Shown here: in pieces, positions 14,131 through 57,500 of the stretch
Layout: each line of letters begins with the position of its first letter
Numbering within the stretch: the stretch's first letter is position 1
Assembly: GCA_903837125.1 (NCBI GenBank)
Contig: CAILTG010000021.1
Location: 11,627 to 75,626, forward strand
DNA: 64,000 nt
Direction of reading: 5' to 3'
DNA from: Candidatus Magasanikiibacteriota bacterium
Lineage (GTDB): Bacteria; Patescibacteriota; Patescibacteriia; Magasanikbacterales; UBA922
Notes under the pieces: model-generated
Seen by the model: the letters and a program-made list of their open reading frames with translations, nothing else
The model's database searches: none
What the model was told of the DNA's origin: nothing
Program-made: the position numbers and the translations under genes

Positions 14131-14159
14131 TTGACAAAGAGGCTAAAGTGTGTTACAAT
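14131..14159 (+). promoter_or_regulatory. Near-consensus sigma70 promoter for rnpB: TTGACA, 17 nt spacer, extended -10 TGtTACAAT.
   Basis: cccTTGACAaagaggctaaagtgTGtTACAATag. The predicted start is about 7 nt downstream and coincides with P1 of the RNase P RNA. Confidence 0.55.
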
Positions 14160-14167
14160 AGTTCTTG

Positions 14168-14600
14168 TCTTATCTATTGTAGATGATCGCCTGCCGATGA
14201 GGCAGGAGGAAAGTCCGAACTCTATCCATTAATTTGGAAATGGTAGTGGGTAACACCCACCAGCACTTTAGAGATAAAGTGTTCGGGATAGCGCCACAGA
14301 GACAATACTACCCCGCAAAATGCGGGGGAAAGGTGAAAAGTGTATGGGGGTTTTGGTTCTAGATCAAAGCTACTATACTCCTCTAATAGTAATATTGGAG
14401 TGCGGCAAGCCCTACCTGGAGAAAGAGCAGCGCCCCGCAGTTTGCGGGGCGAAAAGTTAGCTCGTTAGAATCTATTGGCAACAATAGATCTAGATAAATG
14501 ATCGTCGCCCACAAATCACAACACCAATCGACACTAATTAGTGAAGATTAGTGAAAATAATAGTGGACACAAAATTCGGCTTATAACAATAGGTGAGACA
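14168..14600 (+). ncRNA. rnpB: RNase P RNA (bacterial type A), with a ~55-nt insertion containing ATTAGTG repeats near the 3' end
   Basis: P3 hairpin CCTGCC-GATGA-GGCAGG. CR-I GAGGAAAGTCCGAAC. P8/9 GGTAGTGGGTAACACCCACC. J11/12 CGCCACAGAGACAAT. P12 CCCCGCAAAATGCGGGGG. GGTGAAAAG. P18 ATCTATTG-GCAA-CAATAGAT followed by CTAGATAAATGA. CR-V ACAAAATTCGGCTTATAAC, whose TTCGGCTT pairs with AAGTCCGAA to form P4. P1/P2 5' tcttatctattgt pairs with 3' acaataggtgaga. Followed by an A/T hairpin terminator. Confidence 0.85.
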
Positions 14601-17726: not shown

Positions 17727-17809
17727 GTGGGCGAGAAGGGACTCGAACCCTTATGCCTTTCGGCGTTACCACCTCAAGGTAGTGCGTCTACCAATTTCGC
17801 CACTCGCCC
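17727..17809 (-). tRNA. tRNA-Leu (anticodon GAG) with a long variable arm
   Basis: Reverse complement GGGCGAGTGGCGAAATTGGTAGACGCACTACCTTGAGGTGGTAACGCCGAAAGGCATAAGGGTTCGAGTCCCTTCTCGCCCA. Acceptor and T arms pair. Anticodon loop TTGAGGT with G37. Leu-type D arm. Confidence 0.85.
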
Positions 17810-36498: not shown

Positions 36499-38073
36499 TT
36501 AAATCAATGCTCTCCCCGTCATCTCCGGCGGTTGTTCCAATTCCATTAATTTTAACATGGTAGACGCCACATCAGCCAACATGCCTACTGGTGGTATTAA
36601 ACTTAAATCACCCTCTGGTGGATCGCCAGCTGGACCGGCCTGACCTTTATATTTATTACCAATAATCAAAAATGGCACTGGATTATTACTATGTTCTTTT
36701 AATTTTTCTCCGGTCTGTAAATTAATTTTTTCTTCAGCATTACCATGGTCAGCCGTAATCAAAAGTAATCCATCTTTGGCCAATATATGATCACTTAATT
36801 TACCCAAACATTTGTCAATAACTTCCACGGCCTTAATAGTAGCGGCCAAATTACCGGTGTGACCTACCATATCCGCATTGGCGAAATTTATCATAATAGC
36901 GTCATAAATATCTGCTTCAATAGCTTTAATCACTTCTTTAGTAATTTCGTTTGCCGACATCTCTGGCACTTGATCATAAGAAGAAACATTAGCTGAAGGA
37001 ACAATTTTTCTTTCCTCTCCAGGGAAAGGATCTTCTATAGTGCCATTTAAAAAATAAGTAATGTGAGCATATTTGGTAGTTTCTGCCACATGAAATTGTT
37101 TAAGTCCAGCACGGCTAATTACTTCGGCCAAAGAATTGTGAACTACTTGTGGTAAATATGCGGGAACAGCCGGCAATTCTTTTTCATATTCGGACATGGT
37201 AACAAAAAACAAATTTCGCAAATAATTTCTTTCAAATTTAGCAAAACCTGGCAACACAAAAGCTTGAGTCAGTTCTCGAGCACGATCAGGACGTGAATTA
37301 AAAAAAATCGCCGCATCCCCATCTTTTACCACAGCTACTGGTTTGCCTTTTTTACCAATTACCACTGGCACAAATTCTTCATCATAAACTTTTTTGGCAT
37401 AAGAATCTTCAATGGCCTTTAAAGGATCACTGTAATAATCTATTGCCTCGCCCTCGGCCATAGCCCGATAAGCTTTCTCTGTTCTATCCCAACGATTATC
37501 ACGATCCATGGCGTAAAAACGTCCGGAAACCGTGGCAATTTCTCCGCACTTATACTCTTTAATTTTTTCCTGTAAACTTTTAACAAAACCCAAACCACTG
37601 TTATACATTACATCTCGCCCATCGATAATAACATGAAGATAAACATCCTTAATTTTCTGCTCTTTAGCAAATCTCAAAAGCGCTTCACAATGTTTTTCAC
37701 CAGCATGCACATTACCCGGACCGATAATCCCTATTAAATGCAAGGCTGATTTATTTTTCTTTACCTGTTCTGCTGCTTTCAAAAAAGCTTTATTTTGAAA
37801 AAAAGATTGGTCAGCAATTGCCTTATCAATTCTAGGAATTGTTTGATAATAAACACGACCCGCGCCAATGTTAAGATGACCTACTTCGGAATTACCTACC
37901 TTACCAAACATGAGTCCCACTTCTTGACCAGCGGCGTAAAGAGTCATGGCTGGATACTCACGCAAAAATTTATTGTAGTTTGGCAAAACAGCGCGAGTAA
38001 TAGCATTACCATCGCTTTTAGGAGCCACACCCCAACCGTCAAGAATAACTAATACTACAGGCCTGTTTTTCAT
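36499..38073 (-). CDS. gpmI: 2,3-bisphosphoglycerate-independent phosphoglycerate mutase (iPGM)
   Basis: VVLVILDGWGVAP ... GNSEVGHLNIGAGRVYYQ ... C-terminal ADHGNAE motifs. Confidence 0.88.
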   Translation of the reverse strand: MKNRPVVLVILDGWGVAPKSDGNAITRAVLPNYNKFLREYPAMTLYAAGQEVGLMFGKVGNSEVGHLNIGAGRVYYQTIPRIDKAIADQSFFQNKAFLKAAEQVKKNKSALHLIGIIGPGNVHAGEKHCEALLRFAKEQKIKDVYLHVIIDGRDVMYNSGLGFVKSLQEKIKEYKCGEIATVSGRFYAMDRDNRWDRTEKAYRAMAEGEAIDYYSDPLKAIEDSYAKKVYDEEFVPVVIGKKGKPVAVVKDGDAAIFFNSRPDRARELTQAFVLPGFAKFERNYLRNLFFVTMSEYEKELPAVPAYLPQVVHNSLAEVISRAGLKQFHVAETTKYAHITYFLNGTIEDPFPGEERKIVPSANVSSYDQVPEMSANEITKEVIKAIEADIYDAIMINFANADMVGHTGNLAATIKAVEVIDKCLGKLSDHILAKDGLLLITADHGNAEEKINLQTGEKLKEHSNNPVPFLIIGNKYKGQAGPAGDPPEGDLSLIPPVGMLADVASTMLKLMELEQPPEMTGRALI

Positions 38074-38081
38074 AATTTATT

Positions 38082-39635
38082 TTAATATAAAGGTTTTCCC
38101 GTCATTTCTTTTGCCTTTTCTATTCCCATCATTTTGAGTAATGTTGGTGCTACATCAGCCAAAATTCCTTTATTTTTCATTTTCATTCCTGCAAATTTGT
38201 CACCAATTAAAATACAAGGCACTGGATTTAAAGTATGTTCAGTCATTATTTCTTTAGTCTCTGCATTAATCATTACTTCAGCATTACCATGATCAGCCAC
38301 AATCATTACTTGACCTTTTAATTTCAACATACAATCAACTATTTTTTTTACGCCGGTGTCTACCACTTGAACTGCTTTCTTAGCTGCTTCTAAGTTTCCT
38401 GTATGTCCCACCATATCAGCATTAGGAAAATTAGTGCAGATAAAATTGTATTTTCCAGTTTGCAGATAATCAACAATTTTTTCTACCATTTTTGAGCTAC
38501 TCATTTCCGGCTTATCCGCATAAGAATGTTCTTTGGGCGATTTTATTACTTCACGCTCCTCGCCATTTAAAGGATCCGCATAACCACCATTAATAAAATA
38601 AGTTACATGAGCATATTTTTCTGTTTCGGAAATATATAACTGTTTATAAAGACCATCAATTACCGCTGGCAAACAATTTTTAATATCTGGAGAAGGAAAA
38701 GCAGTAAACACTCTTGGCAAATCCGGACCAAAATCAGTCATCGCCACGAAACGCGTATTTTTTGGCACTCTCTTTCTGATGAAAGCTCCTGGATTTTTTT
38801 GCTCAAAATCTTTTTGCACAAAAGCTTTGGTAATCTGACGAGCGCGGTCACTTCTGGCATTTACAAAATAAATAGCATCATTATTATTAATAGTGGCCAC
38901 TGGCTTATTATTTTCTATTATGACTGATGGACAAATATATTCATCTGTATCTCCCCGATTATACGATTGTGCCAAAGCTTCTTCCGCACTCTGTGAAGCA
39001 CAACCCTTACCCAAAACCATGGCCTCATAAGCTTTTTGCGTACGCTCCCAAATTTTATTTCTATCCATGCCATAAAATCGCCCCATAATGGTGGCAACTT
39101 TTTCATGCTCCAACATATGACCGCGTAATTCCCGTAAAAAACCAGTTGCTCCATGCGGAGAAGAATCACGCCCGTCGGTAAATAAATGTAAAAAAACTTT
39201 TTTTTGATTTTCACGCCGAAAAAATTCCAACATGGCATAAAGATGCTCCGGATAAGCGTGAGCGCTATTTTTGTCTGTTAACAGACTCATAATATGCACA
39301 GCTGTATCATATTTTTTTGTGTGATACAAAGCTTCTTTAAAAGCATGATTCTTAAAAAAAGTACCATCATGAATATGCTCAGAAATCATCACAACATCCT
39401 GTTTAACAATTCTGCCAGCGCCAATATTAAGGTGTCCGGCCTCAGAATTACCCTGCTGACCAGGGAAAAGCCCTACATTCTCGCCCGAGGTATTAAGAGT
39501 AGTATTGGCGTATTTTTTTAAATACCCAAAAATATTAGGTGCGGTTTCTGGAGTAATAGCATTGCCCAATTTTTGTTTGGACAAACCAAAACCGTCCAAA
39601 ATAATTAAAGCTGTAGGAATAATTTTATTTTCCAT
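38082..39635 (-). CDS. Second iPGM-family paralog, tandem to gpmI
   Basis: ALIILDGFGLS ... GNSEAGHLNIGAGRIVKQ ... VADHGNAE. The ATG start MENKIIP is at 39635; the ORF track uses an upstream TTG at 39677. Confidence 0.8.
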   Translation of the reverse strand: MENKIIPTALIILDGFGLSKQKLGNAITPETAPNIFGYLKKYANTTLNTSGENVGLFPGQQGNSEAGHLNIGAGRIVKQDVVMISEHIHDGTFFKNHAFKEALYHTKKYDTAVHIMSLLTDKNSAHAYPEHLYAMLEFFRRENQKKVFLHLFTDGRDSSPHGATGFLRELRGHMLEHEKVATIMGRFYGMDRNKIWERTQKAYEAMVLGKGCASQSAEEALAQSYNRGDTDEYICPSVIIENNKPVATINNNDAIYFVNARSDRARQITKAFVQKDFEQKNPGAFIRKRVPKNTRFVAMTDFGPDLPRVFTAFPSPDIKNCLPAVIDGLYKQLYISETEKYAHVTYFINGGYADPLNGEEREVIKSPKEHSYADKPEMSSSKMVEKIVDYLQTGKYNFICTNFPNADMVGHTGNLEAAKKAVQVVDTGVKKIVDCMLKLKGQVMIVADHGNAEVMINAETKEIMTEHTLNPVPCILIGDKFAGMKMKNKGILADVAPTLLKMMGIEKAKEMTGKPLY

Positions 39636-39744
39636 AATATTTTCTTTTTGTATATTAGTGACAGTATTATAGCGCAAAATGATTACAAGTTCAATTACCA
39701 GATAACAAATAACAAACTGTGTAATAGATCAAAAAATTATCCTC

Positions 39745-39789
39745 TTGACAAAATGGCTAAAATGGACTAAAATGTACTGTTATCAGTAC
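39745..39789 (+). promoter_or_regulatory. Consensus sigma70 promoter (TTGACA, 17 nt spacer, TAAAAT) plus a 16-bp perfect palindromic operator GTACTGTTATCAGTAC at the predicted transcription start of the GC-island gene.
   Basis: cTTGACAaaatggctaaaatggacTAAAATgtactgttatcagtac. Three direct repeats CTAAAATG(G) overlap the spacer. An AGGAG RBS lies 7 nt upstream of the ATG at 39826. Confidence 0.6.
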
Positions 39790-40525
39790 ACTGTGTGCTG
39801 GTAAATCCACCTGATAGGAGAGACCATGGTTGTCTTTAACGCGTTGGTTCTGATCATCGTGTTTCTCTTTACCGTCATGGGCGGCTACTGGCTCGTGGTC
39901 AAGGGGATCATGGGCTACCCCACAGCTGCCATCGCCATCGGGGTCGCGCTGATCCTGTTCTGGGGCATTCGGCGTCTCGTGCGCCGGTTCCCCTGGTGGG
40001 CCGTGAACATTCAGTTCCTGCGGCACACGGCGGATACCAAACGGTACCGAATCGAGGCAGTCACGACCACCAAAAGACGTGGCTACTATGTCATGATGGT
40101 CGTCCTGAAACGAGAAAGCGATTCCCGGCGGATCAAGGTACGCTGGAACTCGTTGCCCTCGGCCGAAACGGTGGGAGGCCCCAAAAGGGCCGAACTCCGG
40201 GAGGGTGGATCGTTCACCCTCAAATTCGACGAGACGAAGATGATCAAAGGGCTGTTCGGTAGGCCCATCGGTTACCGAGTGGTCATGAGCGACTACTACG
40301 AACCGCCGGCGGCCGTCTGATCCCACCTCCAATGAAAAGCCTCCCCCGTCTCCTCTTCATGGCGGACAAAGGCTAGAGAGGATCCTCATCCTCTCCGTGT
40401 CTCAGCGAGCTCTGAGCCATGTATTCTTACCCTCGTTCTTTTCCATCGTTCTTTTCCTGAGGTCTCAAATGACTCAGGGACCGCCACTCGCAATGAGCTG
40501 ACGGAGTTCCCCTTTGACTTTTAAC
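39790..40525. mobile_element. GC-rich (~60% GC by eye) ~0.75 kb foreign island inserted between the gpmI paralog and yidC; horizontally acquired cassette of unknown mobility.
   Basis: Abrupt change in base composition at both edges. Own promoter, operator, RBS and terminator. No integrase or inverted terminal repeats recognised. Confidence 0.55.
39826..40320 (+). CDS. Small membrane protein (2 N-terminal TM helices plus a basic beta-rich domain, possibly bacterial PH-like/bPH_2) encoded on the GC-rich island
   Basis: MVVFNALVLIIVFLFTVMGGYWLVVKGIMGYPTAAIAIGVALILFWGIRRLVRRFPWW... with a good RBS, promoter and terminator. The antisense 191-aa ORF is judged a GC-rich shadow. Confidence 0.55.
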   Translation: MVVFNALVLIIVFLFTVMGGYWLVVKGIMGYPTAAIAIGVALILFWGIRRLVRRFPWWAVNIQFLRHTADTKRYRIEAVTTTKRRGYYVMMVVLKRESDSRRIKVRWNSLPSAETVGGPKRAELREGGSFTLKFDETKMIKGLFGRPIGYRVVMSDYYEPPAAV

Positions 40526-40540
40526 ATTTAGAAATCAGAG

Positions 40541-40572
40541 GCAAAAAAATAATCCCGACTTTATCGGGATTA
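40541..40572. terminator. Bidirectional rho-independent terminator (island gene on +, yidC on -)
   Basis: aaaaaaat aatcccga cttt atcgggatt atttttatttt: an A-run before and a T-run after the stem. Confidence 0.65.
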
Positions 40573-40640
40573 TTTTTATTTTCTGTTAATTTCTGTCTAA
40601 TATGTTTTTTCGTCTTAATCTTAGTCTTAGTCTTTCAATC

Positions 40641-41414
40641 TTATTTCACAATCTCCCCTTCAATTATTTTACTATCACTTGAACTTCCACTTGTTGGAGG
40701 CTGACCTAACCCATGTTTCTTAAACACCACCAATTGTTGTAAAGCAGTTAGGAGCGTGGACAAAAACCAATATAAAGTTAAACCAGCAGGCAATTGAAAA
40801 CCGATTATTACCGTCATGAATGGCATAAAATACAGCATCTGTTTATTCATACTGGCCATCATGCTTTCATCTTTAGCCCCCGGACCGGCGTTCTTTGGCG
40901 GCTGTCTGCGAGTCATCATTCTAGTTTGCCAAAACTGCGCGCCACCAGCCAAAACTGCCAAAATAATACTGGTCTTGCCTAATTCAATAAACCCTAAACT
41001 AATAGTTTTAATAGTACCAGGATTTTTTACAAACGAATAAAGCAATTCAAAACTTTTGGAAGCCAAACCTTGACGCAAAACATAATATAAAGCAATTAAA
41101 ATTGGTAATTGAATTAAGAGTGGCAAACAAGAAGCAAAAGGATTAACTTTATTTTCTTTATAAATTTTCATGGTTTCCTGAGCAATCGCCTGTTTGTCAT
41201 CTTTAAACTTTACTTTTAAAGCTTCTAATTTTGGTTGTAGATCAGTTAAAGCTTTCTGTGATTTAATGGAAGAAGCAGTTAACGGATACAAAATTAATTT
41301 AATCAAAACCGTGATAATCAAAATCACAATTCCCACATCGGGAATTAAATTATACAAAGCCACAAAAGCATTAAAGATTGGTTGGTAAAGAATGATTTGA
41401 AAAAGATGAGACAT
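40641..41414 (-). CDS. yidC: Membrane protein insertase YidC/Oxa1 (short form)
   Basis: …LYPLT..S..SQ.....QPK...LK.K.KDD.Q....E.M.IYKENKVNP...CLPLLIQLPILIALY… YidC core. 257 aa. Confidence 0.85.
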   Translation of the reverse strand: MSHLFQIILYQPIFNAFVALYNLIPDVGIVILIITVLIKLILYPLTASSIKSQKALTDLQPKLEALKVKFKDDKQAIAQETMKIYKENKVNPFASCLPLLIQLPILIALYYVLRQGLASKSFELLYSFVKNPGTIKTISLGFIELGKTSIILAVLAGGAQFWQTRMMTRRQPPKNAGPGAKDESMMASMNKQMLYFMPFMTVIIGFQLPAGLTLYWFLSTLLTALQQLVVFKKHGLGQPPTSGSSSDSKIIEGEIVK

Positions 41415-46387: not shown

Positions 46388-49300
46388 TTAGCCAACTAAT
46401 AAATTTATATGCTGTAGTTCTAAAGGCAAACCGCCAGCATTTATGACACTACCGCTAGCATTTCCTTCTGCGGAAATATTATTTATTGTTGCAAACATTT
46501 CTGGTACTTGTGCTTCAGATAAAATATCTGCCCGCAGTTCAACAATTACTCTTTGATCTTTATTTAAGACATAATTTAGATTATCTATTACTACATTACT
46601 ACCTGAAAGAGTTATTTGTGAACCAATAGGTTGTCCATCAATAAATAAATTTAAGCCAGAAATATTTTCAAATCCACTAATATTTAAACTTAAATTATTT
46701 ATTTTTACATCCTCAACTTTTGGTTCTAACTCAAATCTTCCTAAAACAATACCAATAGAACCCGTGGCCACACTTGAAATCTCTAAAGGTTGGCCAAGAT
46801 AGACATCTAAAGTCCCCAAATTAGTTGGCACTGTTAAACTAAGATGCTGCAATTCCAATGGCAAACCGCCAGCATTTATGACACTACCACTAGAATTACC
46901 TTCTGCAGAAATATTATTTACAGTCACAAACATTCCTGGTACCTGTGCTTCTGGTAAGATATCTGCCCGCAGTTCAACAATTACTCTTTGATCTTTATTT
47001 AAGACATAATTTAGATTATCTATTACTAGGCTACTCCCTGATAGAAATACTTGTGAACCAATAGGTTGTCCATCAATAAATAAATTTAAGCCAGAAATAT
47101 TTTCAAATCCAGTAATATTTAAACTTAAATTATTTATTTTAATATCTTCAACTTTTGCCTCAAGTTCAAATCTTCCTAATACAACAGCGTTAGAACCAGC
47201 AGCCGTACTTGAAACCGTTAAAGGTTGACCAAGGTAAATATCTAAAGTGCCACTACTGCTCACTGGCGCTAAGGCATTATATTCCGCTGTAATCTCGGCA
47301 TCAGTTAAAACTCGCTTATAAAATTTAATTTCATCCATAGAACCAGAGAAGAAGTAATTATTATTATAACTTCCCACCAGAAGTGGAGAATTATCATTCT
47401 TTACCGCACCGGTTTGTGGCTGTTCACCAACTTTTACACCATTGGCATAAACGCGAATCATACTACCATCATAAGTAAGGACAATGTGATTCCATTGGGA
47501 CGTTTTAATTACGTTAGGTGTGTCAAAAACCACGCGAACATCAGACGCGTTGGTGATGCCGGTACGTAAACTGCCGTCATTGGAAATAGTTAATTCATAG
47601 TTAAGCTCTTTGGTAGCAACTACAGCATATTGATTGGAGAAAGATTCCGGCTTGATCCAAGCTTCCAAGGTTAAGGCTTGACCTGGCTCAAGATATTCAG
47701 AATCATTGGCAGTAATTAAATCATTTGTGCCGTCAAATTGCAGAGCAGTACCAGAAATGCCAAGAACATTCGCAATAGGACATTGATCTCCCGAACATCC
47801 TAGAGGAAATAAAGAAGCTGTATCAAAAAACTTGGTTGAATTAGCCGGCTCATTTAATTTATACTCAAAACTATTAATATCAATTGGAACTGGCTTAGAA
47901 TTATTATATTCTGTAGCAATTTCTTCATCTGTCAAAACACGTTTATAAAATTTAATTTCATCTATTGTGCCAAAGAATGGATAATTGCTATTGTAATTAC
48001 CAACTAATAGAGGCGTATTATCATTTTTTATAGCACCAGTCTGCACTTCCTCACCAACTTTTACGCCATTGACATAAGCCCGGACCATACTGCCATCATA
48101 AGTAAGCACAATGTGATTCCATTGGGACAACGTAACTACATTAGGAGTATCAAAAACTACCCGAGTATCAGCCGCATTGACAATACCTGTACGCAAACTA
48201 CCATCATTAGAAATAGTCAATTCATAATTAAGTCCCTTGCTAGCAACCACAGCATAATGATTAGAACTTGCATAAGGTTTGACCCAAGTTTCCAAAGTTA
48301 GGGCTTGACCCGGTTCAAGATATTCAGAATCATTGGCAGAAATCAGATCATTTGTGCCGTCAAATTGTAATGCAGTACCAGAAATACCAGGAACATTCGC
48401 AGTAGGGCATTGATCTCCCAAACAAGCTAAAGGAAAAATTGAGGCCTGATCAAAAAATTGATTTGATCCAACCGGTTCATTTAATTTATAGATCAATTCA
48501 TTATCAACAACTGGAACCGGTTTCAAATTATTATATTCCGCCATAATCTCAGCACCAGTTAAGGTTTGCTTATAAAATTTAATTTCATCAATTGTGCCAA
48601 AGAATGGATACCTATCATCACCTAAACTACCAACTAACAATGGGGTACTATCATTCTTTATGGCACCGGTCTGTGGCTGTTCACCTACTTTTACACCATT
48701 GACATAAGCGCGAATCATACTACCATCATAAGTAAGTGCTAGATGATTCCATTGGTACATTTTTACTACATTATATGCATCAACAGCCGCACGTATGTTG
48801 GAGGCATTGGTGATACCCGCACGCAAACTACCATCATTAGTAATAGATATTTCATAATTAAACCCTTTAGTAATGACCACGGAATAATAATTGGAACTGG
48901 GCTGAGGTTTAATCCAGGTTTCCAAAGTAATTTGGTCTGTTGCTGAAATAATTTCGTTGTTATTAATATAGGTAAAATTATTTACTCCATTGAATTGTAA
49001 AGCTTTCCCAGAAATACCTATTACACCTGCCTCTGGACAATAACTAGCGCCACAACCCATCACTAAACCAGAAACATTATCAACAAAACTAGTGCTACCA
49101 GATTGCTCTTCGAAACTATAAGCTAAATTAATAACACTTGGAGGAACAACTTTTGAAACATTTACCGGTCCCAACCAATCTCCACTACTAGTTAAATTTC
49201 CATCATTATCAACTACTACGACAAGATAATAATATATTCCAGAAGTAACATTGTCCGTATAAGAAACCATAGCCATATTTGTGGAAGTGTTGATTGGTGA

Positions 49301-50524
49301 AAGTCCGGAAATAAGAGTGGTGGTATTAGTACTACGATAAATTTCAAATCTATTAAAATCATTCTGATTGTCTACATAAGTATTCCAATTCAAAACTACA
49401 GTTTCCGGAGCGCTAGAACTGGTTGAAAGACCAGTTACTGGATTTGGAGGAATTAACTTTGGATCTATTTGCCCGGTAGTAGAAGTAAAATCTATGGATT
49501 TATTGAACAAAGGAGTAACACCAGTATTTAAGACTGAAGTATTATCAACATTTGAATTTGTTTTTATAACTAAATTATTATTTGCTGAATAAGCAAAAAT
49601 CCCCTGCTCTGTTTCATAAGAAATATTCTCTAAAGCAGAAAATTTTTCTTTGGTAAATTTATTTTTTAACAATTGACCGGAATAATTATACAAAGATACA
49701 CTGCCATCAGTAAGTTGAACCACTACTTCCAGTCCAGCATTATTTTTATCAATATCAGCCACAATTAAATTAGCACCACTGTCGCGTAAAATAATAGGAA
49801 ATCCGGTGGCAATAGTTCCAGAAGCAGAATAAGCATATAATTTATCATTACTTAAATACCACAATTCGCCATTACCATCATCAACTACTCTACTTAAAAC
49901 TGGACCAGAAACATTAATAGTCTTAACAAGATTCCAACCAGATGATCTTTGATAAACTTGTATTTCAGATTCTCCATCAACCGCATAATAAAACTTATTT
50001 TTAGCGTTGTCTGTTGAAATGTGATTTATTAAACTAGTACCAACTACAATTGGTGTAGCGGTCCAAATTCCAGAGTTTAGAGTTAACTCTTGTACATCCC
50101 CAGCAGCGCTACTATAAAGAACAGTATATTTTTGTAAATTATAATTATACAAGGAAACAATATCAAAACCCAAACCATAAGCATATAACATGACATTTGA
50201 AATTTCTGTTCCTGTACTACTATACAAATGTAAATAATATTCTCCGCTAGTTTTTCTTTCTACCACGCAAATTTCATTCCCAACTACTCCATCAAAATTA
50301 CCTACAATAGGATTGCCTTCAAAAACACCCTCTGCCCAAACAGGAAAACCAGATAACAATTTTCCTGAAGCAGAATAAACAGCCAAACCACCATCATTCG
50401 TAATCAAAATTCTTTCCGCGCCAGGACTAGCGGGATTTATTTCTCCTACACTAGCAAAAACCAAACCCGGCAGAACCAAAAACCCTAACACAGCGATTAG
50501 CGTCAACTTTAATTTTGTGAACAT
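46388..50524 (-). CDS. Giant secreted surface protein: signal peptide, beta-propeller-like N-terminal region, three tandem LamG (concanavalin/laminin-G, PF13385-like) domains, two C-terminal ~147-aa tandem repeats.
   Basis: Signal MFTKLKLTLIAVLGFLVLPGLVFA. Three copies of ...ALQFDGTNDLI.ANDSEYLEPGQALTLE.W.KP....N.YAVVA.K..NYELTISNDGSLR.GI.NA...RVVFDTPNV...QWNHIVLTYDGSM.R.YVNGVKVGE...GTIDEIKFYKRVLTD.EI. C-terminal repeat GTLD.YLGQPL..SS.A.GS...VLGRFELE.KVED.KINNLSLNI.GFENISGLNLFIDGQPIGSQ... x2. Confidence 0.75.
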   Translation of the reverse strand: MFTKLKLTLIAVLGFLVLPGLVFASVGEINPASPGAERILITNDGGLAVYSASGKLLSGFPVWAEGVFEGNPIVGNFDGVVGNEICVVERKTSGEYYLHLYSSTGTEISNVMLYAYGLGFDIVSLYNYNLQKYTVLYSSAAGDVQELTLNSGIWTATPIVVGTSLINHISTDNAKNKFYYAVDGESEIQVYQRSSGWNLVKTINVSGPVLSRVVDDGNGELWYLSNDKLYAYSASGTIATGFPIILRDSGANLIVADIDKNNAGLEVVVQLTDGSVSLYNYSGQLLKNKFTKEKFSALENISYETEQGIFAYSANNNLVIKTNSNVDNTSVLNTGVTPLFNKSIDFTSTTGQIDPKLIPPNPVTGLSTSSSAPETVVLNWNTYVDNQNDFNRFEIYRSTNTTTLISGLSPINTSTNMAMVSYTDNVTSGIYYYLVVVVDNDGNLTSSGDWLGPVNVSKVVPPSVINLAYSFEEQSGSTSFVDNVSGLVMGCGASYCPEAGVIGISGKALQFNGVNNFTYINNNEIISATDQITLETWIKPQPSSNYYSVVITKGFNYEISITNDGSLRAGITNASNIRAAVDAYNVVKMYQWNHLALTYDGSMIRAYVNGVKVGEQPQTGAIKNDSTPLLVGSLGDDRYPFFGTIDEIKFYKQTLTGAEIMAEYNNLKPVPVVDNELIYKLNEPVGSNQFFDQASIFPLACLGDQCPTANVPGISGTALQFDGTNDLISANDSEYLEPGQALTLETWVKPYASSNHYAVVASKGLNYELTISNDGSLRTGIVNAADTRVVFDTPNVVTLSQWNHIVLTYDGSMVRAYVNGVKVGEEVQTGAIKNDNTPLLVGNYNSNYPFFGTIDEIKFYKRVLTDEEIATEYNNSKPVPIDINSFEYKLNEPANSTKFFDTASLFPLGCSGDQCPIANVLGISGTALQFDGTNDLITANDSEYLEPGQALTLEAWIKPESFSNQYAVVATKELNYELTISNDGSLRTGITNASDVRVVFDTPNVIKTSQWNHIVLTYDGSMIRVYANGVKVGEQPQTGAVKNDNSPLLVGSYNNNYFFSGSMDEIKFYKRVLTDAEITAEYNALAPVSSSGTLDIYLGQPLTVSSTAAGSNAVVLGRFELEAKVEDIKINNLSLNITGFENISGLNLFIDGQPIGSQVFLSGSSLVIDNLNYVLNKDQRVIVELRADILPEAQVPGMFVTVNNISAEGNSSGSVINAGGLPLELQHLSLTVPTNLGTLDVYLGQPLEISSVATGSIGIVLGRFELEPKVEDVKINNLSLNISGFENISGLNLFIDGQPIGSQITLSGSNVVIDNLNYVLNKDQRVIVELRADILSEAQVPEMFATINNISAEGNASGSVINAGGLPLELQHINLLVG
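46391..47272. repeat. Two tandem ~441-bp DNA repeats encoding the C-terminal repeat domain of the LamG protein
   Basis: Near-identical segments beginning ...aaaggcaaaccgccagcatttatgacactacc... at about 46420 and ...aatggcaaaccgccagcatttatgacactacc... at about 46862. Confidence 0.75.
47275..49150. repeat. Three tandem ~625-bp DNA repeats encoding the LamG domains
   Basis: Repeated blocks ...ggtgtgtcaaaaaccacgcgaacatcagacgcgttggtgatgcc... / ...ggagtatcaaaaactacccgagtatcagccgcattgacaatacc... / ...ttatatgcatcaacagccgcacgtatgttggaggcattggtgatacc... Confidence 0.65.
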
Positions 50525-51568: not shown

Positions 51569-54500
51569 TTATTTATCATCAAAATTAACTAAATTACTAT
51601 TATATGTATTATACGACGTAATTCCTTTAACAATACTAACAATTGGCACGAGTGGAATATGAACAGCCGACTCAAACCCACTAAGACCTAGATGCCAATA
51701 AGGTGAACCAGCTGCACTAGTTGGATGAAAACCTATATGAGCTCTGAGTCCACCACTTACTTTTTCAAGAATACTTAAGTCAGGTTTAGACCCGGCATTT
51801 ACCTTTAAAAGAGTATTTTCTGTTTCAACCAATTTTATTTGTTTAGCAGGTAGCAATTTGGACACAACACTGGTAGCTTTAAAACCAGCGAAAACGTCAA
51901 CAACATCATAACCAACATTTAAACTAGTATTTAACACAGAACCTTTTTCAGTTGTAGCATTAATAGCTTCATGAGCAGGATTGAAGGTGTAGTCCACGGC
52001 TTCTTCTTTCTCGTCAAAAATACTATTCCACATATTAACAACACCACCAGACAGTTGTGTGGTGCCTGCAACAATATTATTAGCACCCAACACACCCATA
52101 CCCACGCCACCGGCCACGGCCAGAGGTGCACCTAGCCCGCCGGTCGCGACGGTACCACCTGTAGCTAAAGTAACACCACCAGCTACTTCCACAGCTCCAA
52201 ACACAGTATTCAACCCACCCAATACAGTTTGTTTTGTTCCTTCCCACAACAAATCCCAATTTATCTCTCCACTCGGATCCGTATACTTCAATGGATTATT
52301 CTTTACATAAATATATTCATTGTAACCCAACACTCCATCGCCACGATGAATAATTGGATCTTTTGACAAGAATCTGCCAAGCAAAGGATTGTAATAGCGG
52401 GCGTTGTAATAATATAATTCTGATTCAGCATCAAATTCCTGACCAGTGTATAAATAATTACTGGTATTACTATCTTCTCCTAGTTCGCTGGCAATACTGC
52501 CAAATGGGTCATAGCTATACTGGTGCACAATTGCCCCAGTGTTGTTTGTAACCAGCACAGTGGAACCAAGAATATCTTGATTAAGATATTGCAAATTATT
52601 ATTTTGATCTATTTCTGCAATTGAGCCTAGGCCATTTACCATTGTTTTTAGAATTGTTCCGGTGGCACTTACTTCATTCAAAACAGTTAAGCCATTATTA
52701 AGATAATAAGTATTATCGCCATTTACAGCTTTCTTCACACGGTTGCCAAAATCATCATAAACAAATGCCGAAACATTATTTGTTTGATTTGGAATTTGAT
52801 AAGTAATTGAATTTAATTTATTTTCCGAATTCCAATTATAATTTACAGTTTTGGTATTTTTACCAAGCAAACTATAATTTTCTTGGATAATATTGCCATT
52901 ATTATCAGTGGCATAAGCAACATTCAATTTATTATTAAGAGACAATCCAAAAATTTCGTTGGTGTTGGCATTATAATTATAAGTAGTGGTGCCAAAGGCA
53001 GTATGGTAATTTGTTCTGTTACCCCAAGCATCATAATTATAAGCTAAATTTTGACCGGTTGCTAAATGATTATAATCAGCATTAGTAACTTGGCTTATTG
53101 AATCATAAGCATAATTAACAGTGGAAGAAGTTAATTGTCCATCAGTCAATTTAAGTTCCACCATTTGCGTTCTGTTTGATTCCTTATCATAAGTATAATC
53201 CTGTCTAAATAAAATATTAACGCCTAATTTTGTTTCTACACTCTTTGGCCTTTGCGATTCATCATAAGTATAAGTGGTAACTGTGCCATTGCCATAAGTA
53301 ACAGTTAATGGTTTGCCAAATGAAGTGTAAGTATAAACTGCCAAATTATTGGAAGCATAAACTACATTATCAAGTAGCGCGCGATTATTATAATTATAAT
53401 TTATTTTCTTATTCGCGGCATCGGTAATAGATTTTAATCCCGAGTCAACAAAATATTCTCTACCAACATTAAAAGTACCAGCCAAACCAATAATTGTTTT
53501 GGCTTCATTAGTGTTTCTATTCAAAACATCATAAGTATAAGCGGTAGTGCCGGACAAGTCACTTAAACTAAGCAAATTATTCCATTGATCATAACCATAA
53601 TTTATTTCACCTTCTGGTAAAGTTTTTTTGGTTAACCTTTCCAATTTGTCATAAGTATAGGAAACAGAATTACTATTGGCATTTAACTCACTGATTTTGT
53701 TGCTATTTTCATCATAACCAAAAGTAAAGACTTTATTGCCGGGTTCAATTCGCTTGTTTACTCTGTTTAACTGATCATATTCATAACTGGTAATTTTGCC
53801 AGCAATATTTTCTGTTAGACGGTTACTGTTGGCATCGTAAGTATAATTAATCACTGTATTTTGTGAATTAGTTTCGCTCGTCAAACGGTTTAATTTATCA
53901 TAAGCATAATTAGTCGTAAATCCACGTTTGTCTTTCAAGCTGATTTTATTATTCAACAAATCATAACCATAATCTTCATAATTGTTTAAAGAATCTATTA
54001 CTTTAATTAAGCGATTCAAAGAATCATACTGAAATTGAGTAATCTTGCTCTGTGAATCGGTGACGGTTAATTTATTTCCAGCCTTATCATAAGTATAGTG
54101 AGTATTATTATTTGCCGGATCAAATTCATCTGTCAAACGATTAAAAGCGTCATAAGTATAAGTCCAAATTCTGCTCATTTGATCTGTCTTACTTAAAACG
54201 TTACCAACTCCATCATACGTTTGTGAACTAAAATTACCTAAAGCATCAGTAATTTTTGTTTGTCTGTTCAAATTATCATACAAATAATTTATTACATGAG
54301 TATTACTAGTGCCATTGGAATTTTGACGATCAATAGTTTTAACTAAATTACCATTGGCATCATAAAAATACAGAGTATATTTATCATTGGCATCAATCTT
54401 TTTAATTACGCGGTTAGCGCCATCATAAACATAAGAAACTGAAGTTCCCAAGCTATTGCGATTGCTGACACTCAAAAATCCTCGAGGGTTTAATTCCCCG

Positions 54501-57500
54501 GTTTTGTTGCCATTGGCGTCATAAAAATATTTGGTGTGGCCATTCAAAGCGTCATCAGCCTGAAGCAAATGATCCATTAAATCATAAGAATAAATTGTAA
54601 CGTTGTTCTTGCCATCAACATCCTTAATTTTCCGATTAAAACCATCATACTCAAATTTATTGGCAAGATAATTTGAAGCGTCATAATATTTTCTGACTTC
54701 AATATTATTACCGCGCACATCATAAAAATAATCAGCCCGCGCTCCACCGGTGTTTGTTTCTTTTTTTACTTGTCCATTGTTGTAATATTCGTAAGTGATA
54801 GTTTTAACTGGGTCAGTCTTACTAATTATACGATTGGCAGAATCATAAACATATACAATTTCTCGATTTAGAGCATCCTGATCTTTTAATTTGTTCCCCA
54901 CCCAATCATACTGAGATAAAATTGCACTACCAGATTTGGTGACTGACAACAGACTAGCATTAATATCTTTATCATAAACATAAACAGTTGTTCTACCCAA
55001 TTCATCAGTAGCGCTCAGTTTGTGATCTTCTACATCATAAATAAATGTCTGATAAGTATTATCTGGATTAATAGCTTTTCTTAAATTTCCTTTAGTATCA
55101 TATTCAAAATTATACGCGTTACCTTTGGGGTCAGTATACCTAACGCGGTTACCATAAACATCATAAAGATAATTCTTTGTTACGGTTTGTGTCGTGGCAT
55201 CAGCTTGATTTACTATTAAGGATTCACTGGCAAGATAATTACCTGCTGCGTCATAAGTGTAATTAACAACTTGACCAGTCTTACTAGTGTATTTTTTCAA
55301 TGTGCCGTTGGTATTATATTCACGACGTTCAATATTACTTGTTGGATCAGTAAGAGTAACAAGATTTCCATAACTGTCATAAGCATAATTAGTTACTTTT
55401 GTTTCAACTGGTACAGTTGGAGTACTCGCCAAACTTACTGTTTCTGTCTTTCTAGTCATTCGGTTGAATGTGTCTTCATACACAAAAGTATTTACTGTGT
55501 GATAAGTAGTGTCTGGTAAAGTTTCCTTACTTAAGCGACGCTTGGTATCATATTCATAACTAATAATATTATTATTACCGTCAGTGTAAGAAATTGGCAT
55601 GCCCAAAGCACTATATGCCCACTTTTCAATGTTAGTTCCACGTTCTTGATAAATTTTTAATTCACCAGAGTTAAAACAAACCCGATCAGAATAAAAATTA
55701 TTTAAATCACGATAATTTTTAACCAAAGTACAGTGAGTTGAACCTACAATACCAGCATCTGCGACTTGGTAATCCAAAGTATAAACTTTTCTTTTCGCAC
55801 CAACAGCATCTACATTTGGATTGTATTCCCACTGTTCAGTAACCCGCCCATTACTATCAAAAGTGTTATACAAAATTGTACCACGAGGATCAGTATAGGT
55901 AAGCATTTTGCCATCGGCAGTATAAGTAAAATTTTTATCAATTGTCTCGGACACGCCATTATAAATCCGATTGCTCTGTACATGAACTAAATTACTATTT
56001 GCATCATATTCATAAGTAATTACAACTGGATTGGCAGAATTAACATTATCTTGTATACGAACAATCTTATCCCATTTAGCATCATCACTAGCTGAACCAT
56101 AACTAAATGCAATAGAACGACCAGAAGCATCTGTGATAGTTGTTAAAAGTGGCATTGAACGAACACTAGTGTAAGTTAAAGCTGTCACATTACCATTAGT
56201 ATCAACAATATTTTCCAAAACTCCCATATTTGCAGAAATAGCATTAACCGTGCCAGAAAATATATATTTAATTCCATCTAATTTCTGATAAACTAATCGA
56301 CTATTTTCCCAATATAAATTATCAAATTCTCCAACTGGCGGAGTATAGGTTGCTCCACCATCAGTAGTGGTATACGTTGCTACTGAAGCCCCACCTAAAT
56401 ATATTTCAATGTTTTTAGAAATAGGATCTTGATAATAATACATATTATAAGAATGCGCCCAACCATTACCCATTCTATTATTGCGATCAAATAATCTAGA
56501 ATTATAAGTTCTAGTAAAATTAATTGCTTCCCCTCTACCTGGCAATGAAAAATCAGTTTGCGTAAATTCAAAAGCACCAGTACGAATATTAACCGGATCA
56601 GCTGCAAAATTATAAGCTAATAAATCTGTTTTTTTACTCGTGTACGAGGCGTACTGTGCATCCTTGATTGGTTTGGCATCAACTGCTGTAATTTTCGTGC
56701 CAGCATAATATTCTTCAGAATCATAATAACTATCACTATCAAAATCTGGAGCTGGTGTAGAACCACCACCGCCACCACAAGTAGAATATCTTCTAATTTT
56801 AATATTATTTGAAGTATTAGAAATATTATTTGACTCATTAGATTCTGAAATATTATTACTTGGATCAAGAGTGATTGACACCTGATAATTTGCCTCATAA
56901 GGCATACTGCAATTGTCTTCAATATTTGCTGTCATTGTTTTGGTACCACTATACCCCGCAATTAAATTCCAACTAGACGGAGATTCATTCAACAAACCAT
57001 ATGTATTACCATTGCTAACATCTACTATCCCAGCACTATGAACCACACCATTGGAGGCAGTTGTTCCCAAATTTTCTATCGTATAACTATAAGCAATCTG
57101 ATTACCACCATACAGGGTGCCAGCGCTAGTAATGGTGCCATTGCTAGGTTTGAGATCTGGCAAAGGATTGAGATCATAAACAACACGAGAAAACACTCCA
57201 GTATAGTCATCATTTTCAGCTAATAAAGTTGTAGCGTTGGAATCATACAACTCAAGATAAGTATCAACACTTCCGCTAACTTGAACAGTCTGAATAGTTA
57301 CTACCGAACCAGAACGAGCAAAACTAATGCCATAGGCACCAACATCTGAAGTGTTTAAACCTCTGGCCTTAAAATAATAAACTTTAGAATTATAAGTAAA
57401 TTTAAACCAATCTTGATCGCTAGTTGTTAATTGCAAACTATTGTTAGTATAAGTTGTTGCAGTGCCAATATTATAAGCCTGTGAATAAGTATTATTTGGT

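Follow-up and report, generated by a model that had tools for sequence, protein, structure and literature searches.

An autonomous, moron-like GC-rich gene cassette in a conserved expression slot of a Magasanikbacteria genome

Phage morons are autonomous promoter–ORF–terminator units of atypical composition that are found in lambdoid prophages. The segment described here (positions 39745–40577 of a 64-kb stretch of Candidatus Magasanikbacteria DNA, hereafter the window) is an autonomous, moron-like accessory cassette that carries a single fast-evolving gene and occupies a conserved expression slot. It has in common with morons a single ORF with its own sigma-70 promoter and an intrinsic terminator, a sharply deviant composition, placement between unrelated genes, and a small accessory product, which in this case is predicted to be membrane-anchored. 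It differs from them in its setting, which is a chromosomal housekeeping region (gpmI, yidC, nusA, and aminoacyl-tRNA synthetases) and not a prophage, and in the conservation of the slot and promoter across lineages that are ∼20% apart in protein sequence. No phage homologues of the cassette protein were found.

Genomic setting and base composition

The host belongs to the CPR (Patescibacteria) and has an AT-rich genome with a GC content of 34%. The cassette is located on the plus strand, in the interval bounded by the promoter of a gpmI paralog and the terminator of yidC. It is antisense to both of these neighbors, the gpmI paralog on the left (38082–39635, minus strand) and yidC on the right (40641–41414, minus strand). 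Its surroundings comprise two gpmI copies, yidC, nusA, genes for ValRS, TyrRS, and ArgRS, and genes for a DHH protein and an HD protein, and there are no mobility genes among these housekeeping neighbors. Domains of the recombinase, transposase, or Phage_integrase type were found neither in the ORFs scanned within ∼12 kb nor in L040, a sibling locus that is described below, and both tRNA genes of the window are located >20 kb from the cassette. No insertion scar, empty site, or recombinase was identified for the cassette. The entire unit is enclosed by a pair of AT-rich 12-nt direct repeats, AAAAAATTATCC (39731–39742, plus strand) and AAAAAATAATCC (40544–40555), which match at 11/12 positions and could be the scar of an insertion or coincide by chance in AT-rich DNA. 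The window was also scanned for reverse transcriptase (RT) motifs and for further copies of the cassette or of any portion of it, and neither was present; the possibility that the cassette is the target of a diversity-generating retroelement (DGR) was rejected, as the window contains neither an RT nor a template repeat. In one of the relatives (L032), a DGR-like RT is encoded upstream of gpmI.

The GC content of the region 39800–40499 is 57.0%, whereas other 700-nt windows have a mean of 34.3% (SD 2.7%) and reach at most 42.1% (z = 8.4). Inside the island, peaks of 66–68% are observed in 50-nt windows, and the borders of the island, at ∼39790 and ∼40515, are sharp. The deviation is also apparent in codon usage, with GC1/2/3 values of.545/.436/.782 for the ORF of the cassette and GC3 values of.21–.31 in 11 host genes. 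From these values we infer that the cassette body (∼39790–40515) has the composition of a ∼60% GC genome.

Transcription signals and untranslated regions

The cassette begins with a sigma-70-type promoter, TTGACA-17-TAAAAT (39745–39773, plus strand), which agrees with the consensus at 11/12 positions. It is of the host's own type, because the same pattern has 12 matches in the window (4.2 expected), several of which precede real genes or the RNase P RNA. The promoter core, TCTTGACAAAATGGCTAAAAT (39743–39763), is identical in L040 at 21/21 positions, and the remainder of the intergenic region outside this core cannot be aligned between the window and L040. The core contains a 13-mer, AAAATGGCTAAAA (39750–39762, plus strand), that occurs once in the window and is located upstream of all three types of the cassette (window, L040, and L041–L043); among the loci fetched by then, its other exact matches were confined to L002 and L005, where it falls within the coding region of gpmI and runs on the opposite strand. 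Short direct repeats that can be read from the sequence (CAAAATGG, CTAAAATGGA, and CTAAAATGT; 39749–39775, plus strand) run through the promoter. The initial annotation of this DNA, which was made from the sequence alone, described three direct repeats, of which two are exact copies of CTAAAATG (39757 and 39767, 10 nt apart), but the third is CAAAATG (39749) and not an exact copy. The last repeat provides the −10 hexamer, and L040 has only the first two repeat units.

The predicted transcription start is covered by the near-palindrome GTACTGTTATCAGTAC (GTACTG-TTAT-CAGTAC; 39774–39789), a pattern that was found only at this site in the window and that could serve as an operator. It had been described as a perfect 16-bp palindrome, but it is symmetric at 14/16 positions, with two mismatches on the reverse strand that correspond to one central T:T mismatch pair. 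Tight regulation through such an operator, which had also been proposed, was not borne out: the palindrome is imperfect and is not kept as such in L040, its right arm belongs to a conserved hairpin of the 5′-UTR, and no regulator gene was found near the cassette. This hairpin is an 11-bp stem-loop with a CUG loop (39781–39805, plus strand) that starts at approximately the predicted transcription start and is most likely a stabilizer of the mRNA rather than an operator. It is kept in L040 (positions 2864–2888 of that locus), and its predicted folding energies are −11.5 kcal/mol (z = −2.8) in the window and −16.2 kcal/mol (z = −3.2) in L040. When the two copies are compared over the 11 pairs, 95.5% of the cells are paired, with one compensatory and four one-sided changes, and sliding of the partners against each other reduces pairing to ≤50%. 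A Shine–Dalgarno sequence, AGGAG (39816–39820, plus strand), is located 5 nt before the ATG codon at 39826.

Downstream of the ORF, the plus strand continues into a C-rich 3′-UTR (40321–40520) with a GC content of 53% and several local hairpins, in which there is neither an ORF nor codon periodicity. The suggestion that this region contains an sRNA or antitoxin was followed up and gave no signal. No Rfam match was obtained in the 3′ region; at the gathering threshold, the search of the whole window returned no hits in the island, the sub-threshold matches in the island (E ≤ 10) were all located on the terminator, and nothing relevant was found at the related loci. After removal of the terminator, the 3′-UTR does not fold better than shuffled sequences (z = −1.67). 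No homologue of the 3′-UTR was detected, and the 3′ regions of the window, L040, and L041 have no element in common. The unit ends with a bidirectional intrinsic terminator, AAAAATAATCCCGA-CTTTA-TCGGGATTATTTTT (40545–40577), which has a perfect 14-bp stem preceded by an A-tract and followed by a T-tract and is common to the cassette and the convergent yidC gene.

Together, these features would produce a transcript that starts from the host-type promoter at ∼39780 and carries the conserved 5′ stem-loop, a strong ribosome-binding site (RBS), the 164-codon ORF, and the 200-nt GC-rich 3′-UTR before ending at the terminator shared with yidC. The initial annotation, which proposed a compact, self-contained transcription unit for a small basic membrane protein between a gpmI paralog and yidC, is thus supported, and its individual elements stand: the jump in GC content, the promoter, the strong AGGAG RBS, the ∼200 nt of GC-rich non-coding DNA, and the bidirectional terminator. 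The compositional check that it called for showed atypical codon usage, and the relatives that carry the gene do not carry it with native codon usage.

The 164-residue protein and its relatives

The plus-strand ORF (39826–40320, 164 aa) is, judged from its sequence, a real gene, because it displays codon-position periodicity, has full-length homologues, and is best conserved in the sense frame. An exact look-up revealed that the gene called in the public record is an antisense ORF (P0129, 189 aa; 39760–40326, minus strand). The full antisense ORF (39757–40332, 191 aa) has GC values by codon position of.755/.42/.52, a mirror of the sense frame, and tblastx comparison between loci gave E = 1e-25 for the sense frame versus 3e-9 or weaker for the antisense frames. 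Based on this mirrored composition and weaker cross-locus conservation, the antisense ORF was rejected as a true gene, and P0129 is probably only a shadow of the sense gene.

The protein has a pI of 10.57 and two predicted transmembrane (TM) helices (approximately residues 2–30 and 32–54), the second of which is followed by a juxtamembrane segment, RRLVRRFPWW, conserved in the family as RRLxR(R/H)(F/Y)P(W/F)W. Its C-terminal part is predicted to form a basic, five-stranded small beta-barrel (AF2, mean pLDDT of 70.7). With the strongly basic RRLVRR sequence after TM2, the protein would be inserted with both its N- and C-termini in the cytoplasm, and the basic beta-barrel would thereby be placed at the cytoplasmic face of the membrane. 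The initial annotation described two TM helices and a basic PH-like domain; the length of 164 residues, the TM helices, and the basic and beta-rich character agree with our analysis, but the PH-like fold is not supported. Proteins of the bPH_2 family (YdbS/YdbT type) are similar in having two N-terminal TM helices followed by a beta-rich domain of ∼100 residues, but neither a Pfam bPH match nor a PH fold was found, and the assignment to bacterial PH-domain membrane proteins is not supported. The Pfam search returned only a sub-threshold match to DUF1656 (E = 0.061; 13.8 bits, with a cut-off of 26.5), and no match was found among PHROGs or PDB sequences. The PADLOC search gave a single weak match, PD-Lambda-5_A (E = 0.003, 15.5 bits), which spans 40 residues, is out of register, and is absent from P0001 and P0002, the homologues introduced below. 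Our guess, prompted by the fast evolution, envelope location, and patchy distribution of the gene, is that it serves in conflict or host interaction (phage exclusion, immunity, or symbiosis) and not in housekeeping. The more specific toxin, abortive-infection, or exclusion role that had been suggested earlier also remains a guess, as its sole lead is the PADLOC match, which is not common to the homologues.

Two homologues were identified among ∼15 billion proteins, P0001 (E = 4e-21) and P0002 (E = 5e-6). An exhaustive phmmer search of 1.84 billion representative proteins returned the same two sequences and two spurious matches in giant Ig-like-repeat proteins, and no further members were found in single-sequence and profile searches of 5.8 billion clusters, in 241 million metagenome records, in viral contigs, or by tblastn in plasmids and phages. 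None of these protein, metagenome, viral, plasmid, and phage searches revealed a GC-rich donor or a homologue outside the AT-rich CPR context. A word-index search with the 164-aa ORF was blank, since it is the antisense ORF that is deposited in the public record. All three family members are GC-rich islands within AT-rich CPR DNA, and their pairwise identities are 32–34%, so they are equidistant despite the differing relatedness of their hosts and differing loci; L041 is at least as close to either of the other two as these are to each other. The third member (L041 type) is located between mraZ and an HD-domain gene, with AAAATGGCTAAAA still upstream. In L041–L044, the identical block extends into the host HD-domain gene, so that it does not define the bounds of a mobile unit.

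In the sibling locus L040, a 34%-identical homologue occupies the same slot between gpmI and yidC. The flanks of this locus are 77–80% identical to those of the window at the DNA level and 80–82% at the protein level, whereas DNA similarity of the cassette is confined to the promoter core. The dN value is.70 for the cassette versus.12–.13 for the flanks, and dN/dS is.67 versus ∼.12; dS is ∼1.0 versus 0.94–1.12, estimates that are near saturation and unreliable. Four-fold sites shared by the two loci have a GC content of.78 and.83 in the cassettes and of.12–.33 in the flanks. Identity at third positions is.45 in the cassette (.35 expected from composition) versus.60 in the flanks (.31–.33 expected). 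Third codon positions have diverged no less in the cassette than in the flanks. GC3 is undecayed in all three members at this divergence, which is unexpected after a long residence under the mutation bias of the host.

The cassette is absent from 39 GTDB species-level relatives, which keep the gpmI tandem without the adjacency of gpmI and yidC. When relatives were looked up by yidC, their contigs either ended at this gene or carried other genes downstream, and L040, the only relative with the same synteny, has the slot filled. Elsewhere in the group, L002 and L005 have flanks that are 95–97% identical around unrelated GC-rich ORFs, which in L002 are a 155-aa ORF without a Pfam family and an OmpA-family ORF and in L005 is a TSP3-repeat ORF; more small GC-rich ORFs are present in L012 and L027. 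Each GC-rich cassette of L002 is preceded by a conserved hairpin with TTCCAAC and GTTGGAA, a hairpin type that the window lacks. L002 and L005 also have in common a GC-rich stem with a variable loop, located 3′ of their cassettes. A relationship of this element to the 3′ end of the cassette in the window was rejected, as only one 8-mer is shared by eye, which is not significant. A GC-rich non-coding element is also present near yidC in relatives. The cassette locus is one of several sites in Magasanikbacteria at which small GC-rich genes are located between conserved AT-rich flanks and vary among near-identical genomes. Judged by their N-terminal sequences, such genes appear to encode mostly envelope proteins.

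Origin of the cassette and comparison with known systems

Our preferred explanation, to which we give about an even chance, is that the cassette is of foreign origin and is expressed autonomously from a conserved slot, its body having been replaced through recombination of imported DNA. Foreign DNA (∼39790–40515) would have been placed into an expression slot, with its promoter, that is common to the sibling lineage; the coding bodies, which are as different as between unrelated lineages, would reflect replacement of the cassette body by imported DNA, and very fast protein evolution would add to this divergence. The swapped GC-rich ORFs of L002 and L005 argue for cassette replacement in the clade. 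Patescibacteria commonly show horizontal gene transfer and genomic islands (PMC12455944), and natural competence was shown in another CPR lineage, Saccharibacteria (PMC10633639). Weighing against import are the absence of a donor, the undecayed GC3, the lack of evidence of insertion, and the AT-rich promoter motif that accompanies the cassette to another locus, which suggests a long stay of the unit in AT-rich genomes. The initial annotation, in which the cassette was recently acquired and of unknown origin, is correct with regard to the strongly non-native composition, but it is too simple: the homologue in L040 occupies the same slot behind the same 21-nt core, the third codon positions are at least as diverged as the flanks, all members are GC-rich in AT-rich CPR genomes, and no donor was found.

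Replacement by imported DNA has to be weighed against a native, vertically inherited gene that entered or arose ahead of the separation of the window and L040 lineages, has since evolved at the same position under selection that was either relaxed or diversifying, and has its GC-richness actively maintained, either by selection (for a stable or nuclease-resistant GC-rich mRNA or for rare codons that limit translation) or by bias (GC-biased gene conversion or another AT-to-GC-biased process at the locus). In favor of such maintenance, the slot, the 21-nt promoter core, and a homologous 5′-UTR hairpin are common to L040, the dS of the cassette resembles that of the flanks (although near saturation and unreliable), and GC at four-fold sites remains at.78 and.83 at that divergence. 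All three of the three members are GC-rich in AT-rich DNA, one of them at another locus, the GC-rich tract in each case coincides with the transcript body from the 5′-UTR to the 3′-UTR, and no search returned a donor. We nevertheless consider it unlikely, as the GC1/2/3 values and the lower-GC 3′ flank resemble an ordinary gene of a ∼60% GC genome, and we know of no mechanism in bacteria for a local GC3 excess of 45–50 points. Selection on the 3′-UTR is also hard to picture because this region is neither conserved nor significantly structured, the window and L040 members are no closer to each other than either is to L041, and unrelated GC-rich ORFs have been exchanged between the near-identical flanks of L002 and L005. 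Somewhat more doubtful still is the proposal that maintenance of ∼60% GC (GC3 ∼80%) over the whole transcript body is a property of a native class of fast-evolving, envelope-directed CPR genes. The high GC content would then be kept across lineages whose synonymous sites are saturated, and the AAAATGGCTAAAA promoter element would mark the family; mRNA stability, resistance to AU-directed RNases, rare-codon throttling, or a locus-specific AT-to-GC bias could be the cause.

The remaining explanations fit the data less well. The initial annotation guessed at a toxin or abortive-infection module whose RNA antitoxin or sRNA would be encoded in the GC-rich 3′ region. This would suit a small, fast-evolving membrane protein with its own strong promoter, the several local hairpins of the 3′ region, and the weak match to PD-Lambda-5_A. 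It is improbable, however, as this match is short, out of register, and missing from P0001 and P0002, there is no Rfam match, the 3′-UTR without its terminator folds no better than shuffles, no relationship exists among the three members' 3′-UTRs, the antisense strand has no evident promoter-plus-terminator unit, and a length of 164 aa far exceeds that of type I toxins. A type I toxin–antitoxin system in particular was rejected based on this length (versus under ∼60 aa), the absence of an Rfam sRNA, and a 3′-UTR that is neither significantly structured nor conserved. We regard as highly improbable an integron-like or other site-specific cassette at an att-like site, in which the repeats by the promoter would correspond to attI and the hairpins to attC. 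The direct repeats and inverted repeat at the 5′ junction, the 12-nt repeat around the unit, the TTCCAAC/GTTGGAA hairpins of L002, and the 3′ stem with a variable loop that is common to L002 and L005 are consistent with it, but no tyrosine recombinase or transposase was found among the ORFs scanned within ∼12 kb or in L040, the unit forms no array and has a promoter of its own, hairpins of the L002 type are missing from the window, and the AT-rich repeat around the unit could have arisen by chance. The lowest probability is assigned to the tract not being a protein gene, i.e. to a structured non-coding RNA, a real antisense 189-aa ORF, or an assembly chimera. In an AT-rich genome, a GC-rich island often turns out to be an RNA gene, the RNase P RNA forms a milder GC peak in the window, the public record places the gene on the minus strand, and relatives have the GC-rich non-coding element near yidC; against this, the tract has no Rfam match, strong GC3 periodicity is confined to the sense frame, in which cross-locus conservation is also far stronger (1e-25 versus 3e-9 or weaker), and the promoter, RBS, and terminator are all set for the plus strand. 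Homologous GC-rich islands with AT-rich flanks, which recur in independent JGI, ENA, and Logan assemblies, also speak against a chimera.

The locus also exemplifies an annotation failure: in an AT-rich genome, the gene finder picked the shadow ORF on the antisense strand of a GC-rich gene, with the consequence that protein databases lack the real protein and word-index homology searches fail. The same miscalling may hide many accessory genes in CPR genomes. Through such variable GC-rich sites, ultra-small symbionts that scavenge DNA may have a route for refreshing their surface or conflict repertoire. Should the high GC content prove to be maintained and not imported, this would call into question the routine reliance on composition as a clock for horizontal transfer and would indicate an unknown selective or mutational force; if it is a property of a native gene class, such genes would be systematically miscalled or missed by host-trained gene finders, as happened with this cassette.

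When compared with acquired genomic islets and ORFans, the cassette is similar in its large GC and GC3 deviation, its sharp borders, and its absence at the equivalent position of 39 related species-level genomes, which also lack the adjacency of gpmI and yidC. It differs in that no donor, integrase, or insertion sequence was found, no tRNA gene is nearby, the homologues, too, form GC-rich islands in CPR genomes that are AT-rich, and the same slot of a diverged sibling contains an unameliorated homologue. From integron cassettes it differs in having its own promoter and no integrase, recognizable attC, or array at the locus, and no attC-like inverted repeat is shared, by sequence or repeats, at the 3′ ends of the cassettes in the window, L040, and L041. 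The similarity to integron cassettes lies in the nature of the units, which are small, contain a single ORF of foreign composition, and seem to be exchanged between conserved flanks, as in L002 and L005.

A GC-rich gene overlooked in the public record

The window is uniformly AT-rich (30–38% GC per kb), and the single exception is the cassette between a gpmI paralog and yidC. The segment 39800–40499 contains 57.0% GC (the other 700-nt windows have a mean of 34.3%, a standard deviation of 2.7% and a maximum of 42.1%; z = 8.4), and the edges of the island are sharp, at ~39790 and ~40515. The 164-aa ORF on the + strand (39826–40320) has GC1/2/3 values of.545/.436/.782, the pattern typical of a genuine gene of a ~60% GC genome, whereas GC3 of 11 host genes is.21–.31. 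The description of the cassette in the initial annotation, including the GC jump and atypical composition, was largely right overall. This also applies to the consensus promoter TTGACA-17-TAAAAT (39745–39773, +; 11/12 positions), AGGAG RBS (39816–39820, +) and bidirectional terminator with a perfect 14-bp stem (40545–40577). Of the three direct repeats reported near the promoter, two are exact copies of CTAAAATG, but the third reads CAAAATG. Relative to its neighbors the cassette is antisense: it is divergent from gpmI and convergent with yidC, with which it has the terminator in common.

The public record of the contig (NCBI/ENA; 96,013 bp) calls P0129, a 189-aa antisense ORF (39760–40326, −), and omits the sense ORF, which is why exact look-ups and a word-index search found nothing; the sense product is absent from a collection of 15 billion proteins. 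GC by codon position in the antisense ORF (.755/.42/.52) mirrors the sense pattern. In tblastx comparisons with two homologous loci the sense frame scored 78 + 44 bits (E = 1e-25) versus 45 and 41 bits for the best antisense frames, and the promoter, RBS and terminator are all oriented for the + strand. Training on the AT-rich host probably led the gene finder to choose the wrong strand. The cassette is a real gene and, judging from its sequence signals, is probably expressed.

Matches to the promoter consensus at 11/12 or better number 12 in the 64-kb window (4.2 expected), and several of them precede real genes and RNase P RNA, so the cassette promoter is of the host's own type. The RNase P RNA (class A; 14171–14599, +; 173 bits) follows a TTGACA-17-TACAAT promoter at 14131 and, at 429 nt for a 367-position model, probably carries an insertion. 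An 83-nt tRNA-like gene at 17727–17809 (−; Rfam tRNA, 51 bits) has an anticodon unassignable by ARAGORN.

The sequence GTACTGTTATCAGTAC, which spans the predicted transcription start at ~39780, had been described as a perfect 16-bp palindrome and operator-like site. It matches at only 14/16 positions, is not conserved as such in the sibling contig L040, and no regulator gene adjoins the cassette; operator control is therefore not established. The right arm of GTACTGTTATCAGTAC pairs with downstream sequence in an 11-bp 5′-terminal hairpin (−11.5 kcal/mol, z = −2.8), and L040 has a hairpin at the equivalent position just 5′ of the RBS (−16.2 kcal/mol, z = −3.2). Pairing extends to 95.5% of cells across these two sequences, too few to give covariation statistical power; one change is compensatory and four are one-sided, and slid partners are at most 50% paired. 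The evidence for a 5′ stem-loop serving as a stabilizer-type mRNA element is no weaker than that for an operator.

The ~200 nt 3′ of the ORF are, as initially noted, GC-rich (53%) and non-coding, with no ORF or codon periodicity. Its base composition favors C (33.5% C, 19.5% G). It folds into several local hairpins, but without the terminator the overall fold is no better than that of shuffled sequences (z = −1.67; z = −5.7 with the terminator). No Rfam family matches the island, and the three family members have 3′ regions unrelated to one another. We found no evidence for a small RNA or antitoxin in this region.

Protein and family

An AlphaFold2 model of moderate confidence (mean pLDDT 70.7), for which the input was a three-sequence alignment, comprises helices at residues 2–30 and 32–54, both consistent with hydropathy, followed by five strands. 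The pI is 10.6 for the whole protein and 10.2 for residues 56–164, and by the positive-inside rule the β-domain would lie on the cytoplasmic side. Conservation is highest in a juxtamembrane motif, RRLxR(R/H)(F/Y)P(W/F)W, and next in a C-terminal GYR...Y motif. The PH-like fold proposed initially is not supported; the product is predicted to be a membrane-anchored basic β-barrel protein. Our best guess, at low confidence, is a role in conflict or host interaction at the envelope.

In an exhaustive phmmer search of 1.84 billion representative proteins, two hits were credible as homologues: P0001 (E = 4e-21; called at 215 aa) and P0002 (E = 5e-6; 140 aa). No others came from 5.8 billion clusters searched with a profile, from metagenome and viral scans or from tblastn against plasmids and phages. 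Both genes are also GC-rich islands (59–67% GC, GC3.73–.88) in AT-rich DNA. In L040, which carries P0001, gene order is the same as in the window (gpmI1, gpmI2, cassette on the + strand, yidC and then a NUDIX gene), and the flanks are 77–80% identical in DNA and 80–82% in protein. Four contigs from independent assemblies carry P0002, with mraZ on one side and an HD-domain gene on the other. The three members are equidistant (32–34% identity, 34% for the window and L040), although the window and L040 have a common slot with 80%-identical flanks. The intergenic DNA similarity of these two is limited to a 21/21 match, TCTTGACAAAATGGCTAAAAT. The 13-mer AAAATGGCTAAAA, which occurs once in the 64-kb window, is also present upstream of the P0002 cassette; among the loci compared, its only other occurrences, by chance, are within gpmI coding sequences, in L002 and L005. 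The family is very rare, fast-evolving and confined to CPR genomes.

Neighborhood and variable loci in relatives

The cassette has housekeeping genes as neighbors: a tandem pair of gpmI paralogs, yidC (PF02096), nusA and genes for Val-, Tyr- and Arg-tRNA synthetases and DHH, HD and AAA proteins. No recombinase or transposase domains were found in the ORFs scanned within ~12 kb. Relatives of the adjacent gpmI paralog all come from Candidatus Magasanikbacteria or Patescibacteria MAGs. The gpmI paralogs (2,3-bisphosphoglycerate-independent phosphoglycerate mutase; 36499–39635) are ~42% identical to each other, and the pair is kept in most Magasanikbacteria loci fetched (L001–L039), with variable synteny upstream and conserved synteny downstream. 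Two giant ORFs lie ~6–11 kb from the cassette on the − strand, of 1378 aa (46388–50524) and 2633 aa (51569–59470); the latter contains a stretch resembling YD or RHS repeats (YDGVGN) and may encode a polymorphic toxin or surface protein.

In other Magasanikbacteria, different small GC-rich ORFs (GC3.68–.81) lie upstream of the same gpmI gene. The variable segment of L002 (3440–5545) contains a 155-aa ORF without a Pfam family, by eye Cys-rich and lipoprotein-like with a lipobox-like N-terminus, and an OmpA-family ORF; that of L005 (4215–4955) contains an ORF with TSP3 repeats and a lipobox-like N-terminus. The two loci come from close relatives, and around these unrelated ORFs their AT-rich flanks are 95–97% identical, which gives the site, upstream of gpmI and of a gene that by eye is SemiSWEET-like, the look of a hot spot for cassette replacement. 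On the 3′ side of the ORF, both have a GC-rich stem whose loop varies, GGACGAGGCGGGTGG ... TCCACTCGCCTCGAG. Each of the two GC-rich cassettes in L002 is preceded by an AT-rich hairpin element, TTCCAACGTGAA ... TTCxCGTTGGAAACAACGTGTTTA (3534–3600 and 4484–4549, 950 nt apart), the copies being 88% identical over these spans and 82–88% depending on the stretch compared. The ends of the hairpin arms are similar to integron core sites (RYYYAAC, GTTRRRY); no integrase was seen, and the element has no Rfam match.

L041 and L042 are P0002 contigs of separate samples. Their cassettes and downstream HD-domain genes do not differ at all (100% identity), whereas their mraZ flanks (left of ~L041:145) are visibly far more diverged, with an extra insert of ~83 nt in L042. 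A breakpoint, from recombination or strain variation, therefore lies immediately to the left of the cassette. By gpmI, L032 ranks closest among the species-level relatives (83% identity). After enolase and directly upstream of gpmI, it carries a gene for a reverse transcriptase (RVT_1, E = 6e-27; 4910–5938) with the LGNLTSQ motif typical of diversity-generating retroelements; this is the variable position in which the cassette also lies. An IS200/IS605-type Y1 transposase (PF01797; 3769–4218) lies between nusA and yidC in L046, the closest yidC relative (83% identity); therefore, mobile elements do visit this neighborhood in the lineage. A non-coding element of ~200 nt and ~53% GC follows the yidC operon in L049 (6405–6615), L050, L052, L053 and L054, and L051 has no GC peak at this position. 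CCCCTCC...GGAGGGG hairpins delimit the element; it matches no Rfam family, and near-identical contigs differ in whether they have it.

Age and origin of the cassette

The cassette occupies an expression slot conserved in the sibling lineage, with a strikingly non-native composition. When the window is compared with L040, dN is.12–.13, dS.94–1.12 and dN/dS ~.12 for the flanking genes, against a dN of.70, a dS of ~1.0 and a dN/dS of.67 for the cassette. Identity at third codon positions is.45 for the cassette (.35 expected from composition) and.60 for the flanks (.31–.33 expected), so the silent sites of the cassette are at least as diverged as those of the flanks. Recent acquisition, as initially proposed, is thus not established, and simple import is further opposed by the lack of a donor in our searches and by the AT-rich motif that travels with the cassette.

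GC at shared four-fold sites is.78 and.83 in the two cassettes and.12–.33 in the flanks. According to a rough two-state calculation, host mutation bias acting during vertical descent would lower four-fold GC to ~.4–.5. Descent of the gene in place would thus need its GC content to be actively maintained, which is a minority reading. However, the cassette has an ordinary profile of a 60%-GC genome, including a lower-GC 3′ flank, and we know of no process able to hold a GC3 excess of 45–50 points. We prefer the reading that the cassette bodies are alleles from a deep pool, placed into a conserved slot. The preferred mechanism of this turnover is recombination, in which imported DNA would recombine into the slot and replace the cassette body. 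It is favored by the signs of turnover within the clade, the L041/L042 breakpoint, the natural competence shown for Saccharibacteria, which also belong to the CPR (PMC10633639), and the frequent horizontal transfer and islands in Patescibacteria (PMC12455944). As an accessory unit, the cassette is similar to the morons of phages.
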